IMG/VR virus record: IMGVR_UViG_3300006880_000002
Coordinates: 2,955-66,954 of that record
Strand: one strand, 5' to 3'
From: a virus
Length of the DNA stretch: 64,000 nucleotides
The notes under the pieces were generated by a model. It saw nothing but the letters and a program-made list of their open reading frames with translations, was not told the DNA's origin and did not search any database. The stretch's first letter is position 1. The number at the start of each line of letters is the position of its first letter. The position numbers were made by a program, and so were the translations under genes. Below are positions 38,497 through 62,929 of this stretch, one piece after another.

Positions 38497-39227
38497 AGCG
38501 TCACCTTGAGGTAATGCCCCTCGGGCAAGTCCTCGTCTTCCGAAGGACCGCAATACTGCGTCGGATCGGGCACGCCTGCTTCCGCAAACCCCTTCGAGCG
38601 CAGAAAACAGGAATCGCACCTTCCGCACGCCCCGGACGGACGAGGGTCGTAACACGAGCACGTCATTCCGTAGTCGATTCCGAGAGCGACTCCCTTTTGG
38701 ATAATCTGGGCCTTCGTCAGAGCGATGAGCGGCGCGTGAATCGTGAGAGCCTTGCCCTCGACACCTGCCCTCGTCGCCAGGTTCGCCATCCGTTCGTACG
38801 CTTCGATGTACTCCGGACGACAATCCGGGTAACCGCTATAATCCAGTGCGTTGACGCCGATGAAAATGTCCGAGGCGCCGAGAACCTCTGCCCACGCGAG
38901 AGCGAAGGAGAGAAACACAGTGTTACGCGCGGGGACGTAAGTCACGGGGATTCCGTGCGACATCTCATTGAACGGCCTGTCCTTCGGCACGGCGATGTCG
39001 CTCGTGAGCGCTGAGCCCCCGAACACGCGCAGATTGATCGTCGCGATGACGTGCTCGGAGACTCCGATCTTCCCGGATACCCGAGCCGCCGCGTGAAGTT
39101 CGGCCTCATGCCGCTGGCCGTAATGAAAACTCAGGGCGAAGACGGAATACCCCAAGTTCTTCGCGATGGCCAAGACGGTGGTCGAATCGACTCCGCCGGA
39201 CAAGAGCACGACGGCTTTAGGCTGCAT
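38493..39227 (-). CDS. queC: 7-cyano-7-deazaguanine synthase
   Basis: LSGGVDS, YGQRH, VPARN, GYPDCR, SCY..CGRCDSC-x-LR. Confidence 0.95.
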
Positions 39228-40038
39228 TTCGGTCCTCCAGATCGTTCAGTAGTTCTCGGCGCCACTGAAGCGCCCACACGGGGCAGTTGGCGCAGTTAAT
39301 GTGGCCCCTCTTCCGTCTATCTCCGGGCTTGTCGTGCCCAGGCAGGAGCACGGGGTTCTGGCGGGCCGTGTCACTCCAGGCCGTCGAGTCCGCACTCGCT
39401 AGTAGTTGGTGACAGTTCTTCAGCCCCAGTTTCTTGAAGCCGAAGCCGTGTAACCGAAGGCCGGAGCCGGCGAGCGTCGTCATGATCGTCGTCGCTTCGG
39501 CGGTGTTCTGTCGCCGACAGACGGTCCCGACGCCCACGACGCGCTCGTCTTGCAACCGAATCCCCGCCTTCTCGTAGAGTTCCTGGCACCGCCAATAGTC
39601 GGTTAGCTTCCACCCTTGGAGGACCGGAATGACTCGCTCGCCGAGCAACTTTCGCAGGTCGAGAAAGTTCTTCACCGTCCGACGCTGATGTTCCAGCACG
39701 CTTAGGCCGGTACCCGCGAACACGACGCCTCGCGCAGCTGCGCCACCGGCCAACACTATCGGCTCGCACATCCAATCCTGCGGCGCAGCCCACCGCAGAC
39801 GCTTGCCGTAGAACCGGATGTACTTTTTGACCTCGTCGGCAAAGTCGTTCGTGGAAATCGTCCAGCGGCCGAACATCTGAAGCTCAGTGAAGCCGCCCGA
39901 GTCGAGCGCGAAGGATGTCTCTGCGGGCGGCAACTTGGCATAGGTCGCTAGCCGTCGTCGGGAGATGAACAGATCGACGCCGATGAAAGCCTCGTCACGA
40001 AGCCAATGCGGCTGGTGCGTTCCGAGGAAGAACCTCAC
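39217..40038 (-). CDS. dpdA: DpdA/TGT-like deazaguanine DNA transglycosylase
   Basis: [42 protein letters not shown]; adjacent to queC and queE. Confidence 0.8.
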
Positions 40039-40979
40039 AGGCCCATGTCCTCTGTGGCGTTCTTCTTGTCGAGATTCGCGATGCGGATGTACCGCTGCAC
40101 GATCTTGGTGTTGCTGTGCCCCGAGTGCCGCATGATTTCGCTCTCGGTGTGCCCGTTGAGCGCGGCCTGGGTGATGAACCCGGCGCGGAGCGAGTGCGCG
40201 CCGTAGCCCTTGTGGTCGATGCCCGCGTTCGTCATGAGGCGCTTCACGACCTTCTCGACGTACTGCGGCCAGAGGCGTTGCTGCTCGCCGTATTGGACGA
40301 CGCGCCCCCAACGGTTCACCGGGCGGAAGATGGGGCCTTCGGCGATGCGAGAAACCGCGAGCCAGCGCTTCAAGATGCGAACGGGGCAGGTCGCCTCGTT
40401 CTTCCCGAACAGGACCATCTTCTCGAAGCCATTGCCTTCCTGGTCCTCTTTCGCGCGCTCGATGAGCACTGTGAAGCCCTTGTCGTGGAAGGTGACATGC
40501 TCGACGTGCGTGTCCACGATCTCGTGCCGCCGCATCGCGCAAGCCCACCCGAATGCAACGATCGCTCGATCCCGAGCGTTGAGCATCGAGATGTCCGGCG
40601 TGGCCGCGAGCATCTTCTTGATGTGGTCGGCGAGGAGTGGCTTCATACCGACGGCACGGACTTTCTTCGTCCGCCGGATGCCTCGCCAGACTTGCTGCAC
40701 GGCAGGATGGAACCGCGGCGAGAGGTGCCCCTCGGCCTCGTGAGCCTCTCCGATGGCGGAAAGGAACTGGTTCACGGTCGAGACGCTCAAGCCATCCTCC
40801 GCGAGCTTGGCGAGGTACAGGCGGACCGTTTCGGGGTCGGCAGGCACCGCCTTGACGCCGCGCTCCGTGCAGAACGCTCGGAACGGAACCATCTTCTGGA
40901 GATACGAGGCGCGCGTGCCCGGAGCGCGAGAGTGTTGGGCGTAGGAATGACAAGCGTCTTCAAGACTGCGATTCGACAT
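40035..40979 (-). CDS. Cre-like tyrosine recombinase (Int2)
   Basis: MRRHE, KEDQEG, CPV, HSLRAGF, SGH, YIR. Confidence 0.92.
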   Translation of the reverse strand: MSNRSLEDACHSYAQHSRAPGTRASYLQKMVPFRAFCTERGVKAVPADPETVRLYLAKLAEDGLSVSTVNQFLSAIGEAHEAEGHLSPRFHPAVQQVWRGIRRTKKVRAVGMKPLLADHIKKMLAATPDISMLNARDRAIVAFGWACAMRRHEIVDTHVEHVTFHDKGFTVLIERAKEDQEGNGFEKMVLFGKNEATCPVRILKRWLAVSRIAEGPIFRPVNRWGRVVQYGEQQRLWPQYVEKVVKRLMTNAGIDHKGYGAHSLRAGFITQAALNGHTESEIMRHSGHSNTKIVQRYIRIANLDKKNATEDMGL

Positions 40980-44969: not shown

Positions 44970-45035
44970 GTGTATACCCTACGTTTACTTTCGTCAAGTT
45001 CTTCCCTTGACGGGCGAGGCAGGTTCCCGGACATT
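44970..45035. promoter_or_regulatory. Divergent promoter pair
   Basis: CGTCAAG-N7-CTTGACG gives TTGACG -35 boxes on both strands between divergent operons. Confidence 0.55.
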
Positions 45036-45075
45036 GGGAAGGAAGATCCGGACCCTATCCGACGAAGGAAACATC

Positions 45076-45894
45076 ATGCGCTTCCCGAAAATTGACGACG
45101 TCGCAGCCGAACTGCGCAGAATCAATAAAATGGACACCGACGAGGACGACATCGACGTGCGCCTCCAGGTCTACTCAGACGGAGACTGGGCCGTGCGGTG
45201 GGGACTGTCGGACTACGACCAGGATCATCGCGGGTATTGGGGCTCTTCCGGCGTCCCAGGCGGCAACCGCCGGTTCGACTCAAAGGCCGTCGCTCGTGAC
45301 CTGATCGATCAGGCGAAGGAAGCGAAGGCGATGGGCGGGGACGATGAGGGGTTGGATGAGGCGCCAGCGGCCAAAGTCGGCGAAGGACACACCACGGAAA
45401 TCGTCATCCCTGAAATGGACTGGACCCAGATCAGCGGAGACATGGATCCGGGTCAGTACGGTGCCATCATCGCGACAGGTGATGGCTCAGCGTTGGAGCT
45501 CATCGAAATCCAGCCGGTTCGTGAATACGTCGGTAACAAGGATGCGGCCGACGTCGGTTTTCCGTTCTGGTCGAAGGAAGCATACTACACGCTCGAAGAT
45601 CTCGATCCAGAAGACGAGGATGTGCAAAAAGCTCTCGAATCGATGGATCTGGACATCAGTAACATGGCACCGCCGCAACGCGCGATCATCATCGCGGAAG
45701 CGCTCATGCGCTACGGCGTCGGAAGCGACGAAGGTCCCGCAGGATGGTCACAAGACGTACTCGGGGACCGAAAAGTGAAGTGGTGGACAGGCGCGGTCGC
45801 CGGAGCTGAGTACATCGCCGACGAGGATGAGGAGTTCCGACGAGAGATACTCGGTGAAGAAGACGAAGAGACCGAAGAAGACGAGGAAGAATAA
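45076..45894 (+). CDS. Very acidic two-domain protein
   Basis: ATG after AAGGA; D/E-rich throughout, poly-E tail. Confidence 0.7.
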   Translation: MRFPKIDDVAAELRRINKMDTDEDDIDVRLQVYSDGDWAVRWGLSDYDQDHRGYWGSSGVPGGNRRFDSKAVARDLIDQAKEAKAMGGDDEGLDEAPAAKVGEGHTTEIVIPEMDWTQISGDMDPGQYGAIIATGDGSALELIEIQPVREYVGNKDAADVGFPFWSKEAYYTLEDLDPEDEDVQKALESMDLDISNMAPPQRAIIIAEALMRYGVGSDEGPAGWSQDVLGDRKVKWWTGAVAGAEYIADEDEEFRREILGEEDEETEEDEEE

Positions 45895-45896
45895 CC

Positions 45897-47171
45897 ATGG
45901 CCACCCGCAAATCTAAACCTAGGAAGCCTCCGACCCCACACCGTGCCCCCGCGGATCAAGACGCGGCGACGGAGCTCGTACTCTACATCGAAAACACCTC
46001 CGATCTGTCTCCCGACGGTCCGAGCGGTCAGGGCCGGAGCGTGCTTCTGAACGCGCTCCGGAAGTGGCGGAGGGGCACGTACGACCCGACGATGGCGGTG
46101 CGCCTGTTCGAGTACCTTACTGAATCCGGAGCGAAACGGTACGCGAAGGAGATGGGCTCCTCCGAGAAGGAGTGGAGCACGATGTTCACCCCAGCCACGC
46201 GGCACGAAGCGGCGAAGCAACTCGAAGCGAGCTTCCGTCACGCGGTCGAGCACGGAGAGTACGATCACGTCGATACGAAGATCGGGGTGCGGGAGGGGGT
46301 CGAAGCACATCGGCCGGAACGATCCATGACGTATCCACCGTCACCGTCGGGACAGTACGTTCTGAGCCGAGACGGCAAAGAGGTCATGCGGGGTACGGAG
46401 CAAGAGATCTGGCAGTGGATGCACCGGAACCACAGTTACAGCATCGACCACGCTCTTCGTTACGAGGGGTACTCGATCACGCCAGCCGAAGGAGCGCAAC
46501 GTGGTGAGAGTTTCACGCCGGCATTGTCCGGTCAGTACGTAGGACGTCGCGTCGAGATTCTTCACGCTCCGGGAAGCGTATATTTCAAGCCCGGTCAGTT
46601 CGGATACGTCGTAGGTCAAAATCAAACCGGAGGCATGCATTTTATTGACGTCAAGCGCACCAGCAGACCCGGAGAGGTAGCGCTACTAATCTCCAAGACA
46701 CGTGAAATGCGCGGCGGCGCGCTCTGGTTCTCTCTCGAAGGGGTTCGATTCACCGGGCGTGACACGAGAGGGCACGAGGCGCGTGAATCAGTCTCCGAGC
46801 GTCGCGACAGATACTCGATGACGTACGGTCAGCTTCCGGAATTCAAAAATTTCGAGCACGACGTTCATACACGAATCAATCCCGAGACAGACGAGCCGTA
46901 CTGGCCCGAAGGCACAACCTATCCCATGGAACTCGTCTCGCCACGTGAGATCGAACTCGCACGTGAGTTCGGTGGCCTCGATGACTTCCGCACCGAGCGC
47001 CACCGAACCGGCCGTCACACTGGTGCAATCGGCTTCCGTGGTAACGAGAAGCAGATCTACGACTTCCTCACGTTCCTCGTGGACCAAGAAGATGCATTCT
47101 CCGGCGAGGAAGACAGCGCCGGTAGTCTCGCGTCGTCGATCATGTACACGCTCGGGTACGAGTGGGTCTGA
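45897..47171 (+). CDS. Multi-domain (polyvalent-type) protein with basic leader
   Basis: Basic leader then about four compact domains joined by charged linkers. Confidence 0.7.
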   Translation: MATRKSKPRKPPTPHRAPADQDAATELVLYIENTSDLSPDGPSGQGRSVLLNALRKWRRGTYDPTMAVRLFEYLTESGAKRYAKEMGSSEKEWSTMFTPATRHEAAKQLEASFRHAVEHGEYDHVDTKIGVREGVEAHRPERSMTYPPSPSGQYVLSRDGKEVMRGTEQEIWQWMHRNHSYSIDHALRYEGYSITPAEGAQRGESFTPALSGQYVGRRVEILHAPGSVYFKPGQFGYVVGQNQTGGMHFIDVKRTSRPGEVALLISKTREMRGGALWFSLEGVRFTGRDTRGHEARESVSERRDRYSMTYGQLPEFKNFEHDVHTRINPETDEPYWPEGTTYPMELVSPREIELAREFGGLDDFRTERHRTGRHTGAIGFRGNEKQIYDFLTFLVDQEDAFSGEEDSAGSLASSIMYTLGYEWV

Positions 47172-47180
47172 GGTAGCACC

Positions 47181-47648
47181 ATGAACAAATCAGAAAGAAG
47201 GCTCGGTTTTGTCGGAGTGAGCCGCCGACCATCTTCCCCACGCGCCAATACATCCCGAAAGCGTCGAGAAGCGCCCGCTGACCCGCGTGCCGTCGAGTTC
47301 TTCAAGAAGCACGCCGGTTCTTCGTACGACCCGAAAAAAGAAACCCCCGCACAAGGGCGTCTCCGTGGGGCCAAGGCGCTAGCTCGCGCCGAGGCCGAAG
47401 CGACGGCTCGCGGTTGGACCGTCGAATGGGATCACGATCAGAATCCGGATACGTCGTGGATGGACGACGAACAGCTCGCCGATTACGAATCAGGTCGCAT
47501 CGAAATTTTGGATGCCGTCCTGAAAGATGAAAGCGGCGAGGTACTCGAATCACTAGGTGGCGTGGCACTCAATGCTCGCGGCCCGAGAGATCCATACGGT
47601 CGTGTCGTCGAGGCGGAGCTTGCTCTCAAAGCTCTCGGCGAGGAATGA
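47181..47648 (+). CDS. Phage protein with basic leader
   Basis: Arg/Ser leader then FFKKHAG..LARAE..SLGG..PYGRVVEAELA domain. Confidence 0.7.
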   Translation: MNKSERRLGFVGVSRRPSSPRANTSRKRREAPADPRAVEFFKKHAGSSYDPKKETPAQGRLRGAKALARAEAEATARGWTVEWDHDQNPDTSWMDDEQLADYESGRIEILDAVLKDESGEVLESLGGVALNARGPRDPYGRVVEAELALKALGEE

Positions 47649-48007
47649 CGATGAAGCGACAATTCGGACCGTTGTCATCTCGTAGGGTACGCGAATCTCC
47701 CCGCGTCGCCGACTTCAACTCCCTCGACGACCTCATCGCCCACGCCCATCACGAACTCGGTGCGACCCACGTCGTCGTGGCCGGTGCTCACACGCAGATC
47801 TTCTTCCCGCGCGGCGGTCAGTATCCGTACGAGGCCGCCAAGGTGTGGCGGAAGGGCGGGTACTGGCACGCGGAGGGCCCCGGAGCCCGGATGGGCGTGA
47901 AGACGCTACCCAAAGACGCACAACCGATCGAGGTCGAGGGAGGCGGGCGGAGGGCGGCGGAAGCGCGCCCAAAAGCCTCAGGGCGACGCCCACTACGTCG
48001 CCAGTAA
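47645..48007 (+). CDS. Phage protein with basic leader; short product of a frameshifted gene
   Basis: ATGA-coupled; slippery heptamer at 47968. Confidence 0.7.
   Translation: MTMKRQFGPLSSRRVRESPRVADFNSLDDLIAHAHHELGATHVVVAGAHTQIFFPRGGQYPYEAAKVWRKGGYWHAEGPGARMGVKTLPKDAQPIEVEGGGRRAAEARPKASGRRPLRRQ
47949..48002 (+). promoter_or_regulatory. Programmed -1 ribosomal frameshift signal
   Basis: GGAGG (47949), in-frame C CCA AAA (47968-47974), 7-nt spacer, stem GGCGACG/CGTCGCC. Confidence 0.7.
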
Positions 48008-48267
48008 TCTCGGACGAGGCGATCCTTAAAACGATCCACGACGTCGGCGACAGTGACTACGCCGCGGGGTTCGGTCGTATGAGCACCGAAGATCTCGCAG
48101 CGCACTTCGGGATCGATACGACGTACATGCTCAAGCGGATGCAACGTCTCGCTCGGGCAGGCAAAGTGAAGAAGGTCCGCGACATCGTGAGCCGTAAGAG
48201 CGGTCGAGTCGTCGGCTGGCAGAAGTGGGAAATGTACTGGGATCCCGAGAACGACCCTTACGTCTAG
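47974..48267 (+). CDS. Winged-HTH domain reached by -1 frameshift
   Basis: -1 frame PKSLRATPTTSPVISDEAILK..MSTEDLAAHFGID..KRMQRLARAGKV; no start codon at the domain boundary. Confidence 0.6.
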   Translation, partial: SLRATPTTSPVISDEAILKTIHDVGDSDYAAGFGRMSTEDLAAHFGIDTTYMLKRMQRLARAGKVKKVRDIVSRKSGRVVGWQKWEMYWDPENDPYV

Positions 48268-48641
48268 TACCGCCCATCCCCAGGCTTCTTCTTCCCCGAG
48301 GCGAGTTCGGTAGCGTTCGCGAACGCCTCCTGGGCGTCGTGAGCGGCTTGCATGTCCGTCCGCGACGGGGGCCGGATGGGCGTGAGATCCTGGTCGAATT
48401 CCCGAAGGCGTCGCTCAAGCGCCGCGAGCTCGATCCGGAGCCCGTTCACCTCCTGACACGCGTCCACGGTCTGTGAGATCACATCCAGGACGTCTTTGCC
48501 GACGTTCCCGGCCAGCTTGACCTCCAGCGCGCGGAGCTTCGTACGGAGCTCGCCGACGCTTGTGCAGACCTCGGTCCCTCGCTTCACTTCTTTCAAGAGC
48601 GATTGGAACTCGTGCTTCGGGATCGTAATGTACTGAGGCAC
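48264..48641 (-). CDS. Coiled-coil hypothetical protein
   Basis: GTG start 7 nt after TAGAAT. Confidence 0.55.
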   Translation of the reverse strand: MPQYITIPKHEFQSLLKEVKRGTEVCTSVGELRTKLRALEVKLAGNVGKDVLDVISQTVDACQEVNGLRIELAALERRLREFDQDLTPIRPPSRTDMQAAHDAQEAFANATELASGKKKPGDGRY

Positions 48642-48697
48642 GATCCCGATTCTACCTGATCCGGCTACCTCGGGTGTCGACGCAACATTTTGATGCA

Positions 48698-49270
48698 CTA
48701 TCCCTTGGACTTGATCGAGAGGTTCAATTTTTCCGGCCACTTCCGGGCGACGAGCGCCTTCCACTTCCGCTCGCGCTGCTTGAACACCTCCTCGTACCGA
48801 GACTCGTGCGCGACGCACGTTTTGCCTGTCCCATAGAGCACGAACGCCTCCGTGTAACCGGCCTTCGAGTTGAGCTTGTTGCAGTAGTGCCAGGCGCGCT
48901 TCAGACCTAGCGCCGTCTGCTCGGCGCAGCGGGTGGTTGCTTCAAGATCTTGTCCGGCAAGGGCCTTCCACTCCGAGCGCGTGCGCCAGAGCTGGTGGTG
49001 CTGACCGAAACAAATTGCGAGGCCGCCGTCCCCGAGACGTTCTCCACTGTGGAGCTCGGGGTTGAACCGCGTCTCGCCCCAGAACACTACAACCTCCGCC
49101 ATCGCCATCTGCATCCGGTGGGCGCCTCGCACTTTCTGAAGGCTTGCTTCGACCGCGCGAGCGGTCACTTCCATTCGCGCTTCGTAGTGTTCCTTGGTCT
49201 CGTTCCACTTGGGAGACGGAGACGGCATGAGCGAGTAGATCGCTGAGAGGATGTAGGGAAAGAGGTTCAT
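48698..49270 (-). CDS. Lysozyme/transglycosylase-like protein
   Basis: Hydrophobic N-terminus; ETRF...DGG-x-A-x-C-x-GQ...YG-x-G resembles SLT-fold motifs. Confidence 0.5.
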   Translation of the reverse strand: MNLFPYILSAIYSLMPSPSPKWNETKEHYEARMEVTARAVEASLQKVRGAHRMQMAMAEVVVFWGETRFNPELHSGERLGDGGLAICFGQHHQLWRTRSEWKALAGQDLEATTRCAEQTALGLKRAWHYCNKLNSKAGYTEAFVLYGTGKTCVAHESRYEEVFKQRERKWKALVARKWPEKLNLSIKSKG

Positions 49271-49392
49271 CGTTCAAACGTAGCGACGGGACGAGGGGGT
49301 AGTCAACCCGTCAAAGGCGCCCCGATGTCTCCACCGCTCGGGGCCACACGGCTGCACGCGCTAGCCGGGGATCGACTCCCGGAATACCAGAC

Positions 49393-51359
49393 CTAACCGT
49401 GCGGGAGTTTTTGAAACGCCCATGGTTTCTTTCGTTGAGCACCGAGCTTGAGTTCTTCTCTGCGCATCGAACGGCACACGTCGCATTCTGAGCGTCGGCT
49501 GCGACCGTTCTTGTGGAATGCAGACAACGGAGTCGGCGTGCGACATATGGAACACCGTTTCCATTTCACTTTGGAAACCGATTGGCCACACCCGAGATCT
49601 CGTCGTTCACACTGGAAGCTCCGCAATTACATCCCTCTGGGTACCGACATCCAAGCGAATGCTCGGCAGGTTTGACGAGTTCCCAGGCTTCCTTCGCCCA
49701 CTGCACCAACCGTTCGATCCGTTGGTCACGGAAGGCTAGCTCGGCAGCGATGTCGCTCTTCGAGACGAGCCTCTCCGACGTCATCGCGGCAACGTGCGCT
49801 GAGTAGTGCGGTTCGAGCGCGACGACGTCTCTGTATTCGTAGTGTTTCATTCCCGCCCACTCTCCGCGGCATCATCCGCCCGCGCTTGAGCCGCGATCTC
49901 ATCAAGCGCCGTCGTGAGTACCGCTCGAAGGAACGCCGTCTCGTCGAGGAGCTTCACAGCGTCGCGCGACGGCGGCGAGTTGTAGGGCGCCGATTCAAGG
50001 ATCTTGATGACGAGTTCCAGCGCCTTGTGCGCGTTCCAGAACGTGTGCTCGGAGTTGCCGCCCGGGTACTCCAGGCGTTTATTGGTCTGCTGGAGAAGTT
50101 CTTTGACGCGGCTCATGTGAGTAACCTTGCTCCGTGGTGGTTGCCGGAGAGCATGAACCGGTCGTTGATCTGAACCATCTCGCCGCTCTTTACGAGCTGC
50201 CGGATCACGCGCCGGACCGACGAGACGTTCCGGCCGATGCTATCGGCGATCTCGCCGGGCGTGCTCGGTATATTGCGCATCTCCTTCATGTGCTCGATGA
50301 CGGCGGCGCGGACGGTGAGGACGGGGGCGCAGCGAAGCTCCAGAGAGATGGTCATCCGGTCCACCTGGCGAAAGCGAAGTCTCTCGTACGTAACGCCTCG
50401 CGAGCGAGATCGGCAGCGTCCGGCGCTCCATTGGCAATGGTGCGTAGCACGTCCCTCCAAAGATCATCTTCCTTGCCGTGCGCGCTCGCGTCGTCGTCAA
50501 CACCAATGCGCCCGATCTCGGCGACTCGTTTCTCGACTTCTTGTAAGGTCACTTTTTCTCCCTCGCCCACACGACGACCACATGTGACGGCTTGCCGTCG
50601 TGGAAGAGCCCCGAAGCGTGTCCAGCAAGCGCCGCCACGGAAACGATCGTCCAGGGACCTACAAGAGGTTGGCTGTAGCCTGGGTGAACATAGCGAGAGG
50701 TCGGCGGCTTAAGCTCACGGTCGCTCGCTGGGTAGATCTCTTGCCAGAACTCGTGGGTGTCCGTGTTCAAAATTTACTCCTCGTTCGTATCGCTCGTTAT
50801 GTCGATTCCGTTAAAAAAGTAATGCCCACATTCGAAGCACCAGATTACATAGTTCGCGTTTCGAAGGTGCCCGTGGCTGCTGTTGCAGTTCCAACAAGAA
50901 CGCATGGCAAACGCGTTCTTGTTGTCGCGCATCCACTGATCGGCTTTTGCTCGCGCCTCCTCCTTCGTCACCGCTTCTCCTTCCGCGCCTCCGGGAGCCG
51001 CTCCAGCACCCGCTTCACGACCGCGTCGGCCTCGTCGCCGTAGTGGCGCACCATGACCTTCGCGATGGCCTGAGCGTCGTTTTCGTAGCTCGGCTCCGCG
51101 ACCTTCTTCAGGGCGCGGTCGACGGCGGAGATGACGCGGACGACGAAGCCTTCGGATTGGGGGGCGGGGGTCACGGTTCCCTCTGTTGGCAGCAACGACG
51201 CAAACACGTGGTCGGATGCCCCGGATGAGTCGGGTCAACGTCGGCACGATGAACTTGCTGAACCCTCGAAGCCCACTCATGGATCGTGGCTTCTTCGGCC
51301 CACTTGGGGCGGCTCTCGTACGAGTCCCAGATCCACTCGGGGTAGTTCTTGGTTGCCAT
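49393..51359 (-). other. Run of small coupled accessory genes including a wHTH (50113-50355) and Zn-finger proteins
   Basis: Overlapping stops/starts; TPGEIADSIG..VRRVIRQLVKSG. Confidence 0.55.
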
Positions 51360-60231: not shown

Positions 60232-60278
60232 TTGGTCATGCGTGCTATGCTCATCTTCCACGAACGCCTCGCGCGTTA

Positions 60279-60330
60279 CCCCCACGGCTCCCGACGGTTG
60301 GAATTGTCGGAGCCGTGGGGTTTTCTTTTT
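60279..60330 (+). terminator. Rho-independent terminator or attenuator before the primase
   Basis: CCCCACGGCTCC...GGAGCCGTGGGG then TTTTCTTTTT. Confidence 0.75.
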
Positions 60331-60352
60331 GAGTGAGGGGCCATTGATCACG

Positions 60353-62719
60353 ATGCTTGACGTCGCGCTCGTTTACATCGAGCACCGCTTGGCGACCGTT
60401 CCGATCCCATACATGCAGAAAGGGCCGGTGATCCCAAACTGGTCTGATCTTCAGATCACTCGCGAGACGGCGCCGCACTACTACAACGGCATCCCACAGA
60501 ACATCGGCGTCGTCCTTGGATCGAAGTCCGGAGACCTCGTGGACGTGGACATCGACTGCCGGGAGGCTCTTCAGCTCGCTCCGTACATGCTTCCGGATAC
60601 GTGTCGGTTCGGTCGCGACAGTAAACGCGCGTCACACTGGCTCTATTACTCTCCGATCCTGAAGCACACGAAGTTCGAAGACCCGAACATCAAAGGCGAA
60701 GGTCAGACGATCATCGAGCTCCGCGCGGACGGCGTACAGACCGTGTTCCCCGGGAGCACGCACCCGAGCGGGGAGTTCATCGACTTCGAAGAAGATTGGG
60801 GACTAGAAAAGACCGCCCAGGTCGAGCGCGAAAAACTTGAAACTGTCGTCGGCAAACTCGCCGCCGCGGCCCTCCTCGCCCGGTACTTCCCGGCGAAGGG
60901 GCGCCATGACTTCTGTCTAGCCCTCGGCGGGGGCCTTCTCCGGGACGGGTGGACCGTCGAAGAAGCCGAGCCGTTCGTTGCCCTCGTGGCCTGGGTGGGC
61001 GGCTCTGACAGCCCCAGGCAGCGCGCCTCGACGGTCCACGGTACGGCGGAGAAAATCAAGGCAGGAGAGCCCGTCACCGGGTGGAAGCGCGTCTCTGAGC
61101 TCATCGCGGACCGTCCTCTCGGCGGGGGCGTCGGGGGGAGGAAGTTAGTTGGACGCGCACGGAAGTGGCTGCCGGCGACCAAGAACGAGATTGACAACAC
61201 GAACAAGATCCAAATCACCGTCGGCTTCGACGAGCTCGAAATCGCCGACCACATGATTTCCGCGCTCGGGACGCTCCCGAACGTCTACAACCGAGGGTAC
61301 AAGCTCGTGCAGATCCTTCGAGATTCTGTTGAGACGAAAGAGGAGGAAATCACCCGGGAACCAAACGCTCCACGGATCACCGAAATGCCGAAGGTACGGG
61401 TACGAGAACTTGTTTCCCACTTGTGTAACTTCGTGCGTTGGAAGACTGGTCAAGACGGCGAGCCTGCACTCATTCAAGTTCCTGTCCCGGATGAACCAGT
61501 GGCAGCCCTTCACGCTCGGGGCGAGTGGCCCAAGATCAAACCTCTCGGTGGCATCGCAGAGTGCCCTGTGTTTCGTCCCAACAAAACCATTCTCGACGTT
61601 CCTGGATACGACGAGGCAACCGGGATCTTCTACGAACCGAACGCTGACTTTCCGTCCATCCCCACTGAGCCGACCCTCGACGACGTACAGAATGCCATCG
61701 CAGAAATCTACGACGTCGTGCAGGACTTCCCGTTCGAGAACGACGCTCATCTCTCGGCGTGGTTCGCGCTCCTCCTCACACCGTTCGCGCGACCTACGAT
61801 CAACGGCAGCGTCCCGATCGGGCTCTTGAACAAGAACAACCATGGCGTCGGAGGAACGATGCTGGCGGAGATCATCGGAGAGATCTTCAGCGGAAGATCT
61901 CTCCCGTGCATGCCGCTCGCGAACGAAGACGAAATGCGGAAGCGTCTTCTCGCCCTCGCGGTCGCGGGCGATCCGATCGTCCTTCTGGACAACGTGAAAG
62001 GGACGCTCGACTCCCAAGTTCTCGCGCTCACAATCACGAGCCAAACGGTTCAGGACCGGCGCCTCGGGATCTCTCAAATGGTCCCGATGCCGATGCGCGC
62101 TCTCTGGCTCGTGAGCGCGCAAAATCTCGTCCTCAGTAACGAGCTTGTTCGTCGCGCCCTTCACGTCCGTCTCGAAACGACTCTAGAGAAGCCTGAGGAG
62201 CGTTCGGACTTCAAGTACGACCCACTCATCCCGCACATCCGAAACGTGCGTCCGAAGCTCGTGAGCGCAGCGTTGACCGTTCTCCGCGGGTACTTCGCCG
62301 CGGGCAGCCCTCCTCAAAAACTTCCGGCTTGGGGTTCCTTCGAGCAGTGGTCGAACGTCGTGCGTGGAGCGCTCGTATGGGCGGGCATGAAGGACCCTCT
62401 CGGCGGTCGAGAAGATCTCACCGAGACGAGCGATTCGGAGACGAGCGCTCTCGAACGAGCCCTCATCGCGTGGGAGGGACTCGGGCGTCCGATGCTCATC
62501 TCGGAGGTCTTGCACGAGATCCAGATGGGGTCTTTCGCCCACACAGAACTCAGAGAAGCGCTCGCAGAGCTGTGCGATCACCCCGCGGACAGGCTCACAG
62601 CCTCGATTATTGGGGTCCAACTCAAGAAATATCGTCGAAAAAACGTCGGTGGACGCCGTTTCGACACGAAACCCAAACAAAAACACGGAGTTCCTTGGTT
62701 TGTCAGCCGAATCGGGTGA
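60353..62719 (+). CDS. Prim-pol primase fused to a helicase-like domain
   Basis: NIGV..DVDID, HWLY, IELR, FPGS-x-HPSG; C-terminal HGVGGT, LLDNV, RRAL. Confidence 0.85.
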   Translation: MLDVALVYIEHRLATVPIPYMQKGPVIPNWSDLQITRETAPHYYNGIPQNIGVVLGSKSGDLVDVDIDCREALQLAPYMLPDTCRFGRDSKRASHWLYYSPILKHTKFEDPNIKGEGQTIIELRADGVQTVFPGSTHPSGEFIDFEEDWGLEKTAQVEREKLETVVGKLAAAALLARYFPAKGRHDFCLALGGGLLRDGWTVEEAEPFVALVAWVGGSDSPRQRASTVHGTAEKIKAGEPVTGWKRVSELIADRPLGGGVGGRKLVGRARKWLPATKNEIDNTNKIQITVGFDELEIADHMISALGTLPNVYNRGYKLVQILRDSVETKEEEITREPNAPRITEMPKVRVRELVSHLCNFVRWKTGQDGEPALIQVPVPDEPVAALHARGEWPKIKPLGGIAECPVFRPNKTILDVPGYDEATGIFYEPNADFPSIPTEPTLDDVQNAIAEIYDVVQDFPFENDAHLSAWFALLLTPFARPTINGSVPIGLLNKNNHGVGGTMLAEIIGEIFSGRSLPCMPLANEDEMRKRLLALAVAGDPIVLLDNVKGTLDSQVLALTITSQTVQDRRLGISQMVPMPMRALWLVSAQNLVLSNELVRRALHVRLETTLEKPEERSDFKYDPLIPHIRNVRPKLVSAALTVLRGYFAAGSPPQKLPAWGSFEQWSNVVRGALVWAGMKDPLGGREDLTETSDSETSALERALIAWEGLGRPMLISEVLHEIQMGSFAHTELREALAELCDHPADRLTASIIGVQLKKYRRKNVGGRRFDTKPKQKHGVPWFVSRIG

Positions 62720-62929
62720 CGCAGGTGACGGAGCGATGGTGCTGTTTTGGGTGACGCAGTCGACGCAGGTGACGCAGTTTCAGAGGCGTTGGCGGAAACG
62801 GTCGGTCCGGGTGACGCAGGTGACGCACCCCCAATCCCGGTTTGTAGAAAATTTCCTGATCAGACGACCAGGGCGACCGAAATCTCCAACGGCCTCTGAA
62901 ACTGCGTCACCTGCGTCGACTGCGTCACC
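62715..62929. repeat. Iteron array with 38-bp inverted repeat, probable replication origin
   Basis: Seven forward and three reverse GGTGACGCA-like 9-mers; arms 62750-62787 and 62892-62929. Confidence 0.8.

Follow-up and report, generated by a model that had tools for sequence, protein, structure and literature searches.

The closest described counterparts of the gene analyzed here are Escherichia coli dnaX and insertion sequences (IS) of the IS3/IS911 type. In these, a −1 slip occurs at an in-frame heptamer of the form X XXY YYZ with a lysine codon in the A site, accompanied by a stem-loop a few nucleotides further downstream and by a Shine-Dalgarno (SD)-like sequence 10 to 14 nucleotides (nt) upstream (described in this way in the portions of PMC5009743 and PMC4066793 drawn on here). 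The combination of SD-like and stem-loop stimulators is attributed to dnaX and to many IS elements in the relevant section of the first of these sources (PMC5009743). Elements of the IS3 type use the shift to continue a protein into another open reading frame (ORF) that lacks a start codon (same sections; PMC5009743, PMC4066793), and in phage lambda G/GT and phage T7 10A/10B, a short ORF gives rise, through a −1 slip close to its 3' end, to a minor, C-terminally extended isoform alongside the major short one (as summarized in part of PMC5009743). Here we examine a comparable gene in a 64,000-nt stretch of DNA from an uncultured soil phage (hereafter the window), comprising bases 2955 to 66954 of the 66,954-base-pair (bp) IMG/VR virus record IMGVR_UViG_3300006880_000002, which has direct terminal repeats and is rated complete. 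In this gene a programmed −1 frameshift at the heptamer C CCA AAA probably appends a winged helix-turn-helix (wHTH) domain to a small protein; the slipping itself we infer from the sequence. The mechanism is already known, and the window gene is a well-supported new instance of it.

The locus shares with dnaX and the IS elements an in-frame heptamer with a lysine A-site codon, and it has a predicted downstream stem-loop and an SD-like sequence, here 14 nt upstream, as candidates for the two stimulators; as in the IS3 type, the protein would be extended into an ORF without a start. It differs from both in that the heptamer is C CCA AAA and not A AAA AAG, in that the predicted downstream structure is a simple 7-bp hairpin and neither a pseudoknot as in IS3 nor a long stem as in dnaX, and in that the encoded proteins are unrelated. 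Whereas the dnaX shift shortens its product, that in the window would lengthen it. As in lambda G/GT and T7 10A/10B, the slip would come late in a short ORF and give a C-terminally extended form. Unlike those genes, this one lies among accessory genes between replication modules and not in a tail or head region, and the appended part is a predicted winged helix. We found no sequence kinship between the window gene and any described frameshifted gene.

In the mechanism that we favor, most ribosomes would translate frame 0 up to the TAA at 48005 to 48007 and produce a 120-amino-acid (aa) protein consisting of an N-terminal domain (the N domain) and a basic tail. A fraction would slip back by one base on C CCA AAA, the proline tRNA moving from CCA to CCC and the lysine tRNA from AAA to AAA, probably aided by the hairpin 7 nt downstream and perhaps also by pairing of the upstream GGAGG with 16S rRNA. 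The slipped ribosomes would then read a linker and the winged helix, giving a product of 207 aa (110 + 97) that joins the N domain to a module of the nucleic-acid-binding type. For E. coli, the portion of PMC4066793 used here gives C_CC.A_AA.A >0.10% frameshifting without a stimulator and names C_CC.A_AA.G as the best motif of all (54% with a pseudoknot).

The heptamer, the GGAGG, the 7-bp stem, their spacing, and both stops lie exactly where the first-pass annotation, a reading of the window's letters, had placed them (Table 1). The heptamer counts as an in-frame X XXY YYZ because codon 109 is CCA (47969 to 47971) and codon 110 is AAA (47972 to 47974), preceded by CGC. The stem is formed by GGCGACG (47982 to 47988) and CGTCGCC (47996 to 48002); a stimulatory structure is expected 5 to 9 nt downstream of a slip site. 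The G+C content at third codon positions (GC3) over approximately 47721 to 47900 is 0.83 to 0.90 in frame 0 and 0.37 to 0.60 in frame −1, and from 47946 onward it is 0.73 to 0.83 in frame −1 and 0.50 to 0.67 in frame 0; this switch, at ~47950 to 47990, indicates that the coding frame truly changes at the heptamer. As a background, we used a crude set of 67 high-GC3 ORFs (13,176 codons), which contains 30 in-frame X XXY YYZ heptamers, 11 of them with an A/T second triplet and a single one, the studied site, reading CCCAAAA. By these counts, a shift-prone heptamer within the last 13 codons of an ORF and at a frame change is expected at a rate of roughly 1 to 3%.

These signals recur in a different IMG/VR record (L005), the sole relative with DNA for comparison that carries the module, i.e., the wHTH domain behind an N-domain-containing ORF. 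The N domain of L005 is 56% identical to that of the window and is embedded in a 506-aa multidomain ORF (979 to 2499), which extends ~180 residues past the N domain and still ends with an in-frame CGC CCA AAA (2458 to 2466). Its heptamer (C CCA AAA, 2460 to 2466) is in frame and identical to that of the window, the spacer to the hairpin is also 7 nt long (2467 to 2473), a GAGG lies 10 nt 5' of the heptamer, and the wHTH domain behind it is read in the −1 frame as far as 2765, with 60% identity over 98 residues. The two genomes agree in all 12 nt around the heptamer, whereas the adjoining sequence, including the linker after it, has diverged. The L005 hairpin has a different sequence, with 9 to 11 bp and a folding energy of −19.8 kcal/mol (z = −3.55; 0 of 200 shuffles equal), and folds of such strength are found in <1% of random pieces from the window or L005. 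A −1 frame stop at 2436 to 2438, 24 nt upstream of the heptamer, and the frame-0 stop at 2497 to 2499 together confine the frame change to 58 nt. This interval includes the heptamer and contains no ATG, GTG, or TTG; the first canonical start in the −1 frame of L005 is ATG 2616, deep in the wHTH domain. Conservation in relatives, which the first-pass annotation had put forward as a check, is thus seen in 1 of 1 wHTH-bearing relatives with DNA, in which the in-frame heptamer, the 7-nt spacing, and the hairpin are all kept. The 58-nt interval of L005 additionally holds a second shift-prone element, an in-frame AAA AAG (A_AAG tetramer; 2488 to 2494) located in the hairpin loop, which has no counterpart in the window.

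The −1 frame also bears the marks of a translated sequence. Nei-Gojobori counts between the window and L005 give a ratio of nonsynonymous (dN) to synonymous (dS) substitution of 0.21 (0.25/1.20) over residues 15 to 99 of this frame and again of 0.21 (0.17/0.81) across the 23 codons preceding ATG 48079; in the two other frames of the same alignment, dN exceeds dS. In accord with the earlier statement that the wHTH domain has no start codon at its boundary, ATG, GTG, and TTG are all absent from the −1 frame between GTG 47845 and ATG 48079. The latter aligns with GCG in L005, and residues D30, F35, and R37, which vary little or not at all among 13 to 26 family members, are all encoded upstream of it. 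The purifying selection, the nonconserved ATG, and the upstream invariant residues together indicate that the −1 frame is translated upstream of ATG 48079, from which it follows that the gene calls P0001 (62 aa) in the window and P0005 (45 aa) in L005 are truncated. The junction peptide that the first-pass annotation had named is contiguous within the −1 translation, and its proposal of a −1 frameshift that appends a winged helix and generates two isoforms draws support from the GC3 profile, L005, dN/dS, and the predicted fold.

Several observations weigh against this reading. The arrangement is present in just two genomes, the window and L005, and since the module has an ancestry common to both, conservation of the heptamer amounts to one observation, not two. 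Moreover, the heptamer codes for R-P-K within a recurring linker motif (see below), so that the 12-nt identity may partly reflect constraint on the protein. The window hairpin is by itself weak evidence and only modestly unusual: the 36-nt fold has an energy of −12.6 kcal/mol (z = −2.9; 2 of 200 shuffles equal), among 3,000 pieces of 36 nt drawn at random from the GC-rich window, 9.2% fold equally well (2.1% when the stem begins 4 to 9 nt in), and folds of 71 nt and 121 nt favor other pairings. The GGAGG is likewise weak evidence because, in this G-rich sequence, a core SD motif occurs in the 14-nt stretches upstream of internal codons with a background frequency of 12.7%. In E. coli, whose preferences may not be those of the host, X XXA AAA is far weaker than X XXA AAG (according to the portion of PMC4066793 used here). 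Two further points on this side, concerning the codons at the frame-0 stops, belong to the first of the alternatives considered after the table.

TABLE 1 Features of the frameshift locus, in window coordinates
Feature	Position	Strand	Remarks
Frame-0 ORF	47645..48007	+	120 aa (118 aa from ATG 47651); stop TAA 48005-48007
SD-like GGAGG	47949..47953	+	14 nt 5' of heptamer; possible 5' stimulator
Stretch extra relative to L002-L004	47965..48262	+	~298 nt; exactly heptamer + hairpin + wHTH
Slippery heptamer C CCA AAA	47968..47974	+	In frame as X XXY YYZ
−1 segment after putative slip	47974..48267	+	97 codons + TAG 48265-48267; ~12-residue linker, then wHTH
Heptamer-stem spacer	47975..47981	+	7 nt
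Hairpin	47982..48002	+	Perfect 7-bp stem, 7-nt loop; candidate 3' stimulator
ATC in −1 frame	48007..48009	+	Overlaps frame-0 stop (TAATC); sole near-cognate start near domain boundary
Predicted wHTH domain	48013..48264	+	Order H1-strand-H2-H3-wing
ATG 48079	48079..48081	+	Gene caller's start for 62-aa ORF P0001; rejected as real start

The alternative that survives best is termination-coupled re-initiation, in which a separate wHTH protein of ~86 aa would start from a near-cognate codon overlapping the frame-0 stop (ATC 48007 in the window and CTG 2496 in L005), the hairpin hiding the restart site until upstream translation opens it. The two codons are aligned with each other, both overlap the stop (TAATC and CTGA), and they lie next to, and one residue behind, the aligned methionine of the stand-alone relatives P0006 and P0010; these are the two points just referred to. 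Stand-alone forms of the domain do exist (L011, P0010, P0012, P0013, and P0016), and the 3' arm of the L005 hairpin covers the CTG. However, ATC and CTG are very inefficient start codons in bacteria, and both lineages have retained these noncanonical codons even though an ATG or GTG is one substitution away, while the stand-alone relative L011 does have an ATG. Re-initiation would also leave the conserved in-frame heptamer and its 7-nt spacer unexplained, and the closest wHTH homologs are C-terminal fusions. We attach less importance to the absence of an SD-like motif 4 to 17 nt upstream of the ATC or CTG, since the ATG of L011 also lacks one and an SD is present in just 34 of the 67 background ORFs. 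On balance we regard re-initiation as unlikely, but as the one serious rival of the frameshift.

A dead gene, in which a 1-nt indel (or an assembly error) became fixed in a former in-frame fusion of N domain, linker, and wHTH and the downstream part is not made, appears very improbable. It would be in keeping with the in-frame fusions known for the same domains (P0017 and P0020) and with the frame-0 tail past the heptamer, which is short and poorly conserved (linker dN/dS of 0.6 between the window and L005), but the −1 frame has been under purifying selection at a dS of ~1.2 since the two lineages split, and two diverged genomes have the same frame arrangement. The sequence is, furthermore, identical and free of indels in contigs from three runs: contigs of runs X1 and X2, possibly the source sample, match all 701 nt without a difference, and a separate 151-nt contig from run X3 covers 47930 to 48080 with zero differences and zero indels. 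These identical letters, together with the independent genome L005, exclude an assembly error. If the indel were ancient and the domain still under selection, the domain would have to be translated, which leads back to the frameshift model.

Still less probable is an independent start at ATG 48079, the possibility that the first-pass annotation had itself raised against its reading, with a 62-aa protein as the product and a noncoding −1 frame upstream. This ATG is the first canonical start past the heptamer and is the one adopted in the public gene call P0001, but L005 has GCG in its place and its first in-frame start further in (2616), the 23 preceding codons have a dN/dS of 0.21, and a protein begun there would drop helix 1 along with D30, F35, and R37; the independent start thus did not hold. 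The least probable alternative is a long overlapping −1 gene of 140 aa from GTG 47845, which exists in a frame open from 47686 but has a −1 GC3 of 0.37 to 0.60 over 47721 to 47945 against 0.8 to 0.9 in frame 0, meets in L005 a −1 stop 24 nt before the heptamer, and has an Arg/Gly-rich, off-frame upstream translation without relatives. Transcriptional slippage was set aside because the runs here are just C3 and A4, far below the runs of ~9 on which it is described (in the section of PMC5009743 drawn on here).

The part that the frameshift would append is predicted to fold as a winged helix. An AF2 model of the downstream part, built from 26 sequences, has a confidence (pLDDT) of 81 and the topology H1-E-H2-H3-E-E, with helices at residues 16 to 26, 40 to 47, and 51 to 63 of the wHTH model and strands at 68 to 71 and 86 to 90. 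In a Foldseek search against the PDB, nearly all the matches listed are winged helices (AntR [6uvu], ArsR, MarR, Z-alpha, and eS25); the top ones have probabilities of 0.96 to 1.0 but are weak (E at least 3.8e-3, with none at or below 1e-3). Sequence profiles give results in the same direction below threshold: the best Pfam match of the window domain is HTH_24 (E = 1.2e-3; 18.8 bits against a gathering score of 21.9), other families score lower, and it exceeds the gathering score of no Pfam wHTH family; in PHROGs, the downstream part has a subthreshold match to phrog_2440, a transcriptional regulator (E = 3.4e-3). The distant relative P0006, in turn, exceeds the Pfam threshold for TrmB (31.0 against 25.6 bits). 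The domain thus resembles the wHTH domains of MarR, TrmB, and ArsR in its predicted order of H1, strand, H2, H3, and wing, and it is set apart from them by its scores below the Pfam gathering thresholds and by a family-specific wing motif, G-W-Q-x-W-E. From its predicted fold, the winged helix would be expected to bind DNA.

When 1.84 billion representatives were searched exhaustively with a profile of the domain, 31 proteins were recovered at E ≤ 1e-3. In the three closest longer matches, P0002 (176 aa), P0003 (204 aa), and P0004 (331 aa), the wHTH domain forms the C terminus of a single ORF, being placed in P0004 behind a GNAT domain (E = 6e-10), and in P0015, P0018, P0019, and P0030 it is internal or C-terminal. 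P0020 offers an in-frame version of the L005 junction, with the wHTH domain directly behind the domain that ends the L005 ORF, and P0017 (592 aa) combines this same end domain, the wHTH domain, and the N domain in one polypeptide. In P0006, P0007, P0010, P0012, P0013, and P0016, the wHTH domain is N-terminal and has its own methionine, and in L011, the sole stand-alone relative with DNA, it starts with an ATG 6 nt past the upstream stop. The in-frame fusions and the ATG of L011 indicate that the wHTH domain is a shuffled module, normally found within a larger polypeptide and provided with a normal start when it stands alone. In being a shuffled module of phage multidomain proteins, it is unlike the dimeric repressors of the MarR, TrmB, and ArsR types.

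Across these proteins the same small domains, namely the N domain, the end domain of the L005 ORF, the wHTH domain, a "VRDY" repeat, and a piece of a 424-aa ORF of the window, occur in varied order, which suggests shuffling at the linkers. A short linker motif, E-A/T-R-R-(R)-P, is seen repeatedly where domains meet in P0006, P0017, P0018, and P0024, and it is also found in the tail of the N domain (window positions 47950 to 47975) and in the tail of the L005 ORF (2440 to 2470); it may mark a hot spot of recombination or a site of processing.

The frame-0 product consists of the N domain, with a conserved core at about residues 20 to 95, and a disordered basic tail. AF2 models the N domain as a small alpha/beta unit with a core pLDDT of ~90; it has zero hits in Pfam or PHROGs, zero usable hits in the Atlas, and no fold match in the PDB (best E = 0.22). 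The first ATG of its gene overlaps the stop of an upstream 155-aa ORF (ATGA, 47645 to 47648), and a second ATG, 47651, which lies 6 nt downstream of a GAGGA, may be the true start. Relatives of the N part, 49 to 92% identical, are found in seven loci of viral contigs. By tblastn, the downstream part is present in one of these (L005), and the other six have no wHTH domain. Three of the loci (L002 to L004) have an N domain 92% identical to that of the window without the module, and a soil relative (run X4) stops resembling the window past 47964; the breakpoint of the extra block of ~298 nt lies 3 to 4 nt before the heptamer.

Pattern-based scans for further wHTH loci yielded few additions. With the window protein as the pattern, 0 of 13 candidate stretches in viral contigs had it; with a two-sequence alignment, 1 of 75 viral stretches (the L005 record again) and 0 of 207 in metagenome contigs; and with a five-sequence alignment, 1 of 131 viral stretches (once more L005), 0 of 308 in metagenome contigs, and 0 of 117 in genome contigs. 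A scan for the distant subfamily gave 2 of 112 viral stretches, the L005 record and L011. That phage accessory genes might have arrived repeatedly and independently at a C CCA AAR slip appending a wHTH domain, with heptamer, hairpin, and wHTH domain as a portable recoding cassette, is put forward as a doubtful proposition. In this soil-phage lineage the three elements are either all present or all missing, in the manner of a single unit. The recoding part of such a cassette would be ~65 nt long, and the shared E-A-R-R-P linker motif may promote its shuffling.

The window has a G+C content of 61%, and the metagenome runs that contain its sequence are from rhizosphere or soil; no RNA run was listed as containing the studied stretch. 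Its genes include those for a helicase, a DNA polymerase, a primase-polymerase, and a queuine tRNA-ribosyltransferase-like protein, and the neighbors of the studied gene are small accessory genes without an assigned function, located between the replication modules. Zero matches were obtained among 50,697 GenBank phage records either by blastn with positions 45000 to 50000 or by tblastn with the N part and with the downstream part, and a word-index protein search returned the window's own gene calls and two N-domain relatives and nothing more.

Among the other genes of the window, a 578-aa ORF on the minus strand (39220 to 40953) matches phrog_1279, queuine tRNA-ribosyltransferase, in its C-terminal half (E = 6.3e-72), which suggests a DpdA-like 7-deazaguanine DNA modification system in the phage. 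The 424-aa ORF mentioned above (45897 to 47171, plus strand) matches phrog_38200 with its residues 145 to 199 (E = 3.4e-5), and these residues are 75% identical to residues 354 to 408 of the wHTH-containing P0024; its first 120 residues are also found in L006 and L008. The 825-aa primase-polymerase ORF (60242 to 62719) contains an in-frame A AAA AAC at 62638 to 62644 on the plus strand, 27 codons from its end; the −1 ORF at that site ends at 62754, just 35 nt beyond the frame-0 stop, which makes a meaningful extension of the primase-polymerase unlikely. Downstream of the studied gene, the stop of the wHTH frame (TAG, 48265 to 48267) shares a palindrome, CTAG, with the stop of a convergent minus-strand ORF (48264 to 48818). 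The CTAG is also present in L002, but there the N-domain ORF reads through across it.

Nearly all phage frameshifts annotated so far concern tail chaperones. A tail assembly chaperone was considered as an identity for the present gene and was rejected: neither part matches chaperone families in PHROGs or Pfam, the matches being just weak ones to winged helices or regulators, and the gene does not lie between major tail and tape-measure genes, its neighbors being small genes without an assigned function. Joined frameshift genes in SEA-PHAGES annotations comprise 2,397 tail chaperones out of 2,476, the other 79 being hypotheticals (figures from the portion of PMC10885494 used here), and this predominance implies that nonstructural phage frameshifts are rarely annotated. 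In the main texts searched, we found no phage frameshift that appends a winged helix; the terms "winged" and "DNA-binding domain" are absent from the 300,000 characters searched of the review (PMC5009743).

If the frameshift operates as proposed, recoding would control the isoforms of a regulator or effector and not of a structural protein, a use that is rarely documented in phages, and it would most likely serve to keep free and DNA-targeted N domain at a fixed ratio. Gene callers misannotate such genes, as illustrated by the 62-aa ORF in the window and the 45-aa ORF in L005 (P0005), with half of the domain hidden. Should the more tentative idea of a portable cassette also be true, the cassette would be attachable to the 3' ends of varied ORFs, such as that of the N domain in the window and that of the 506-aa protein in L005, and would fix the ratio of free to DNA-tethered effector wherever it is joined.

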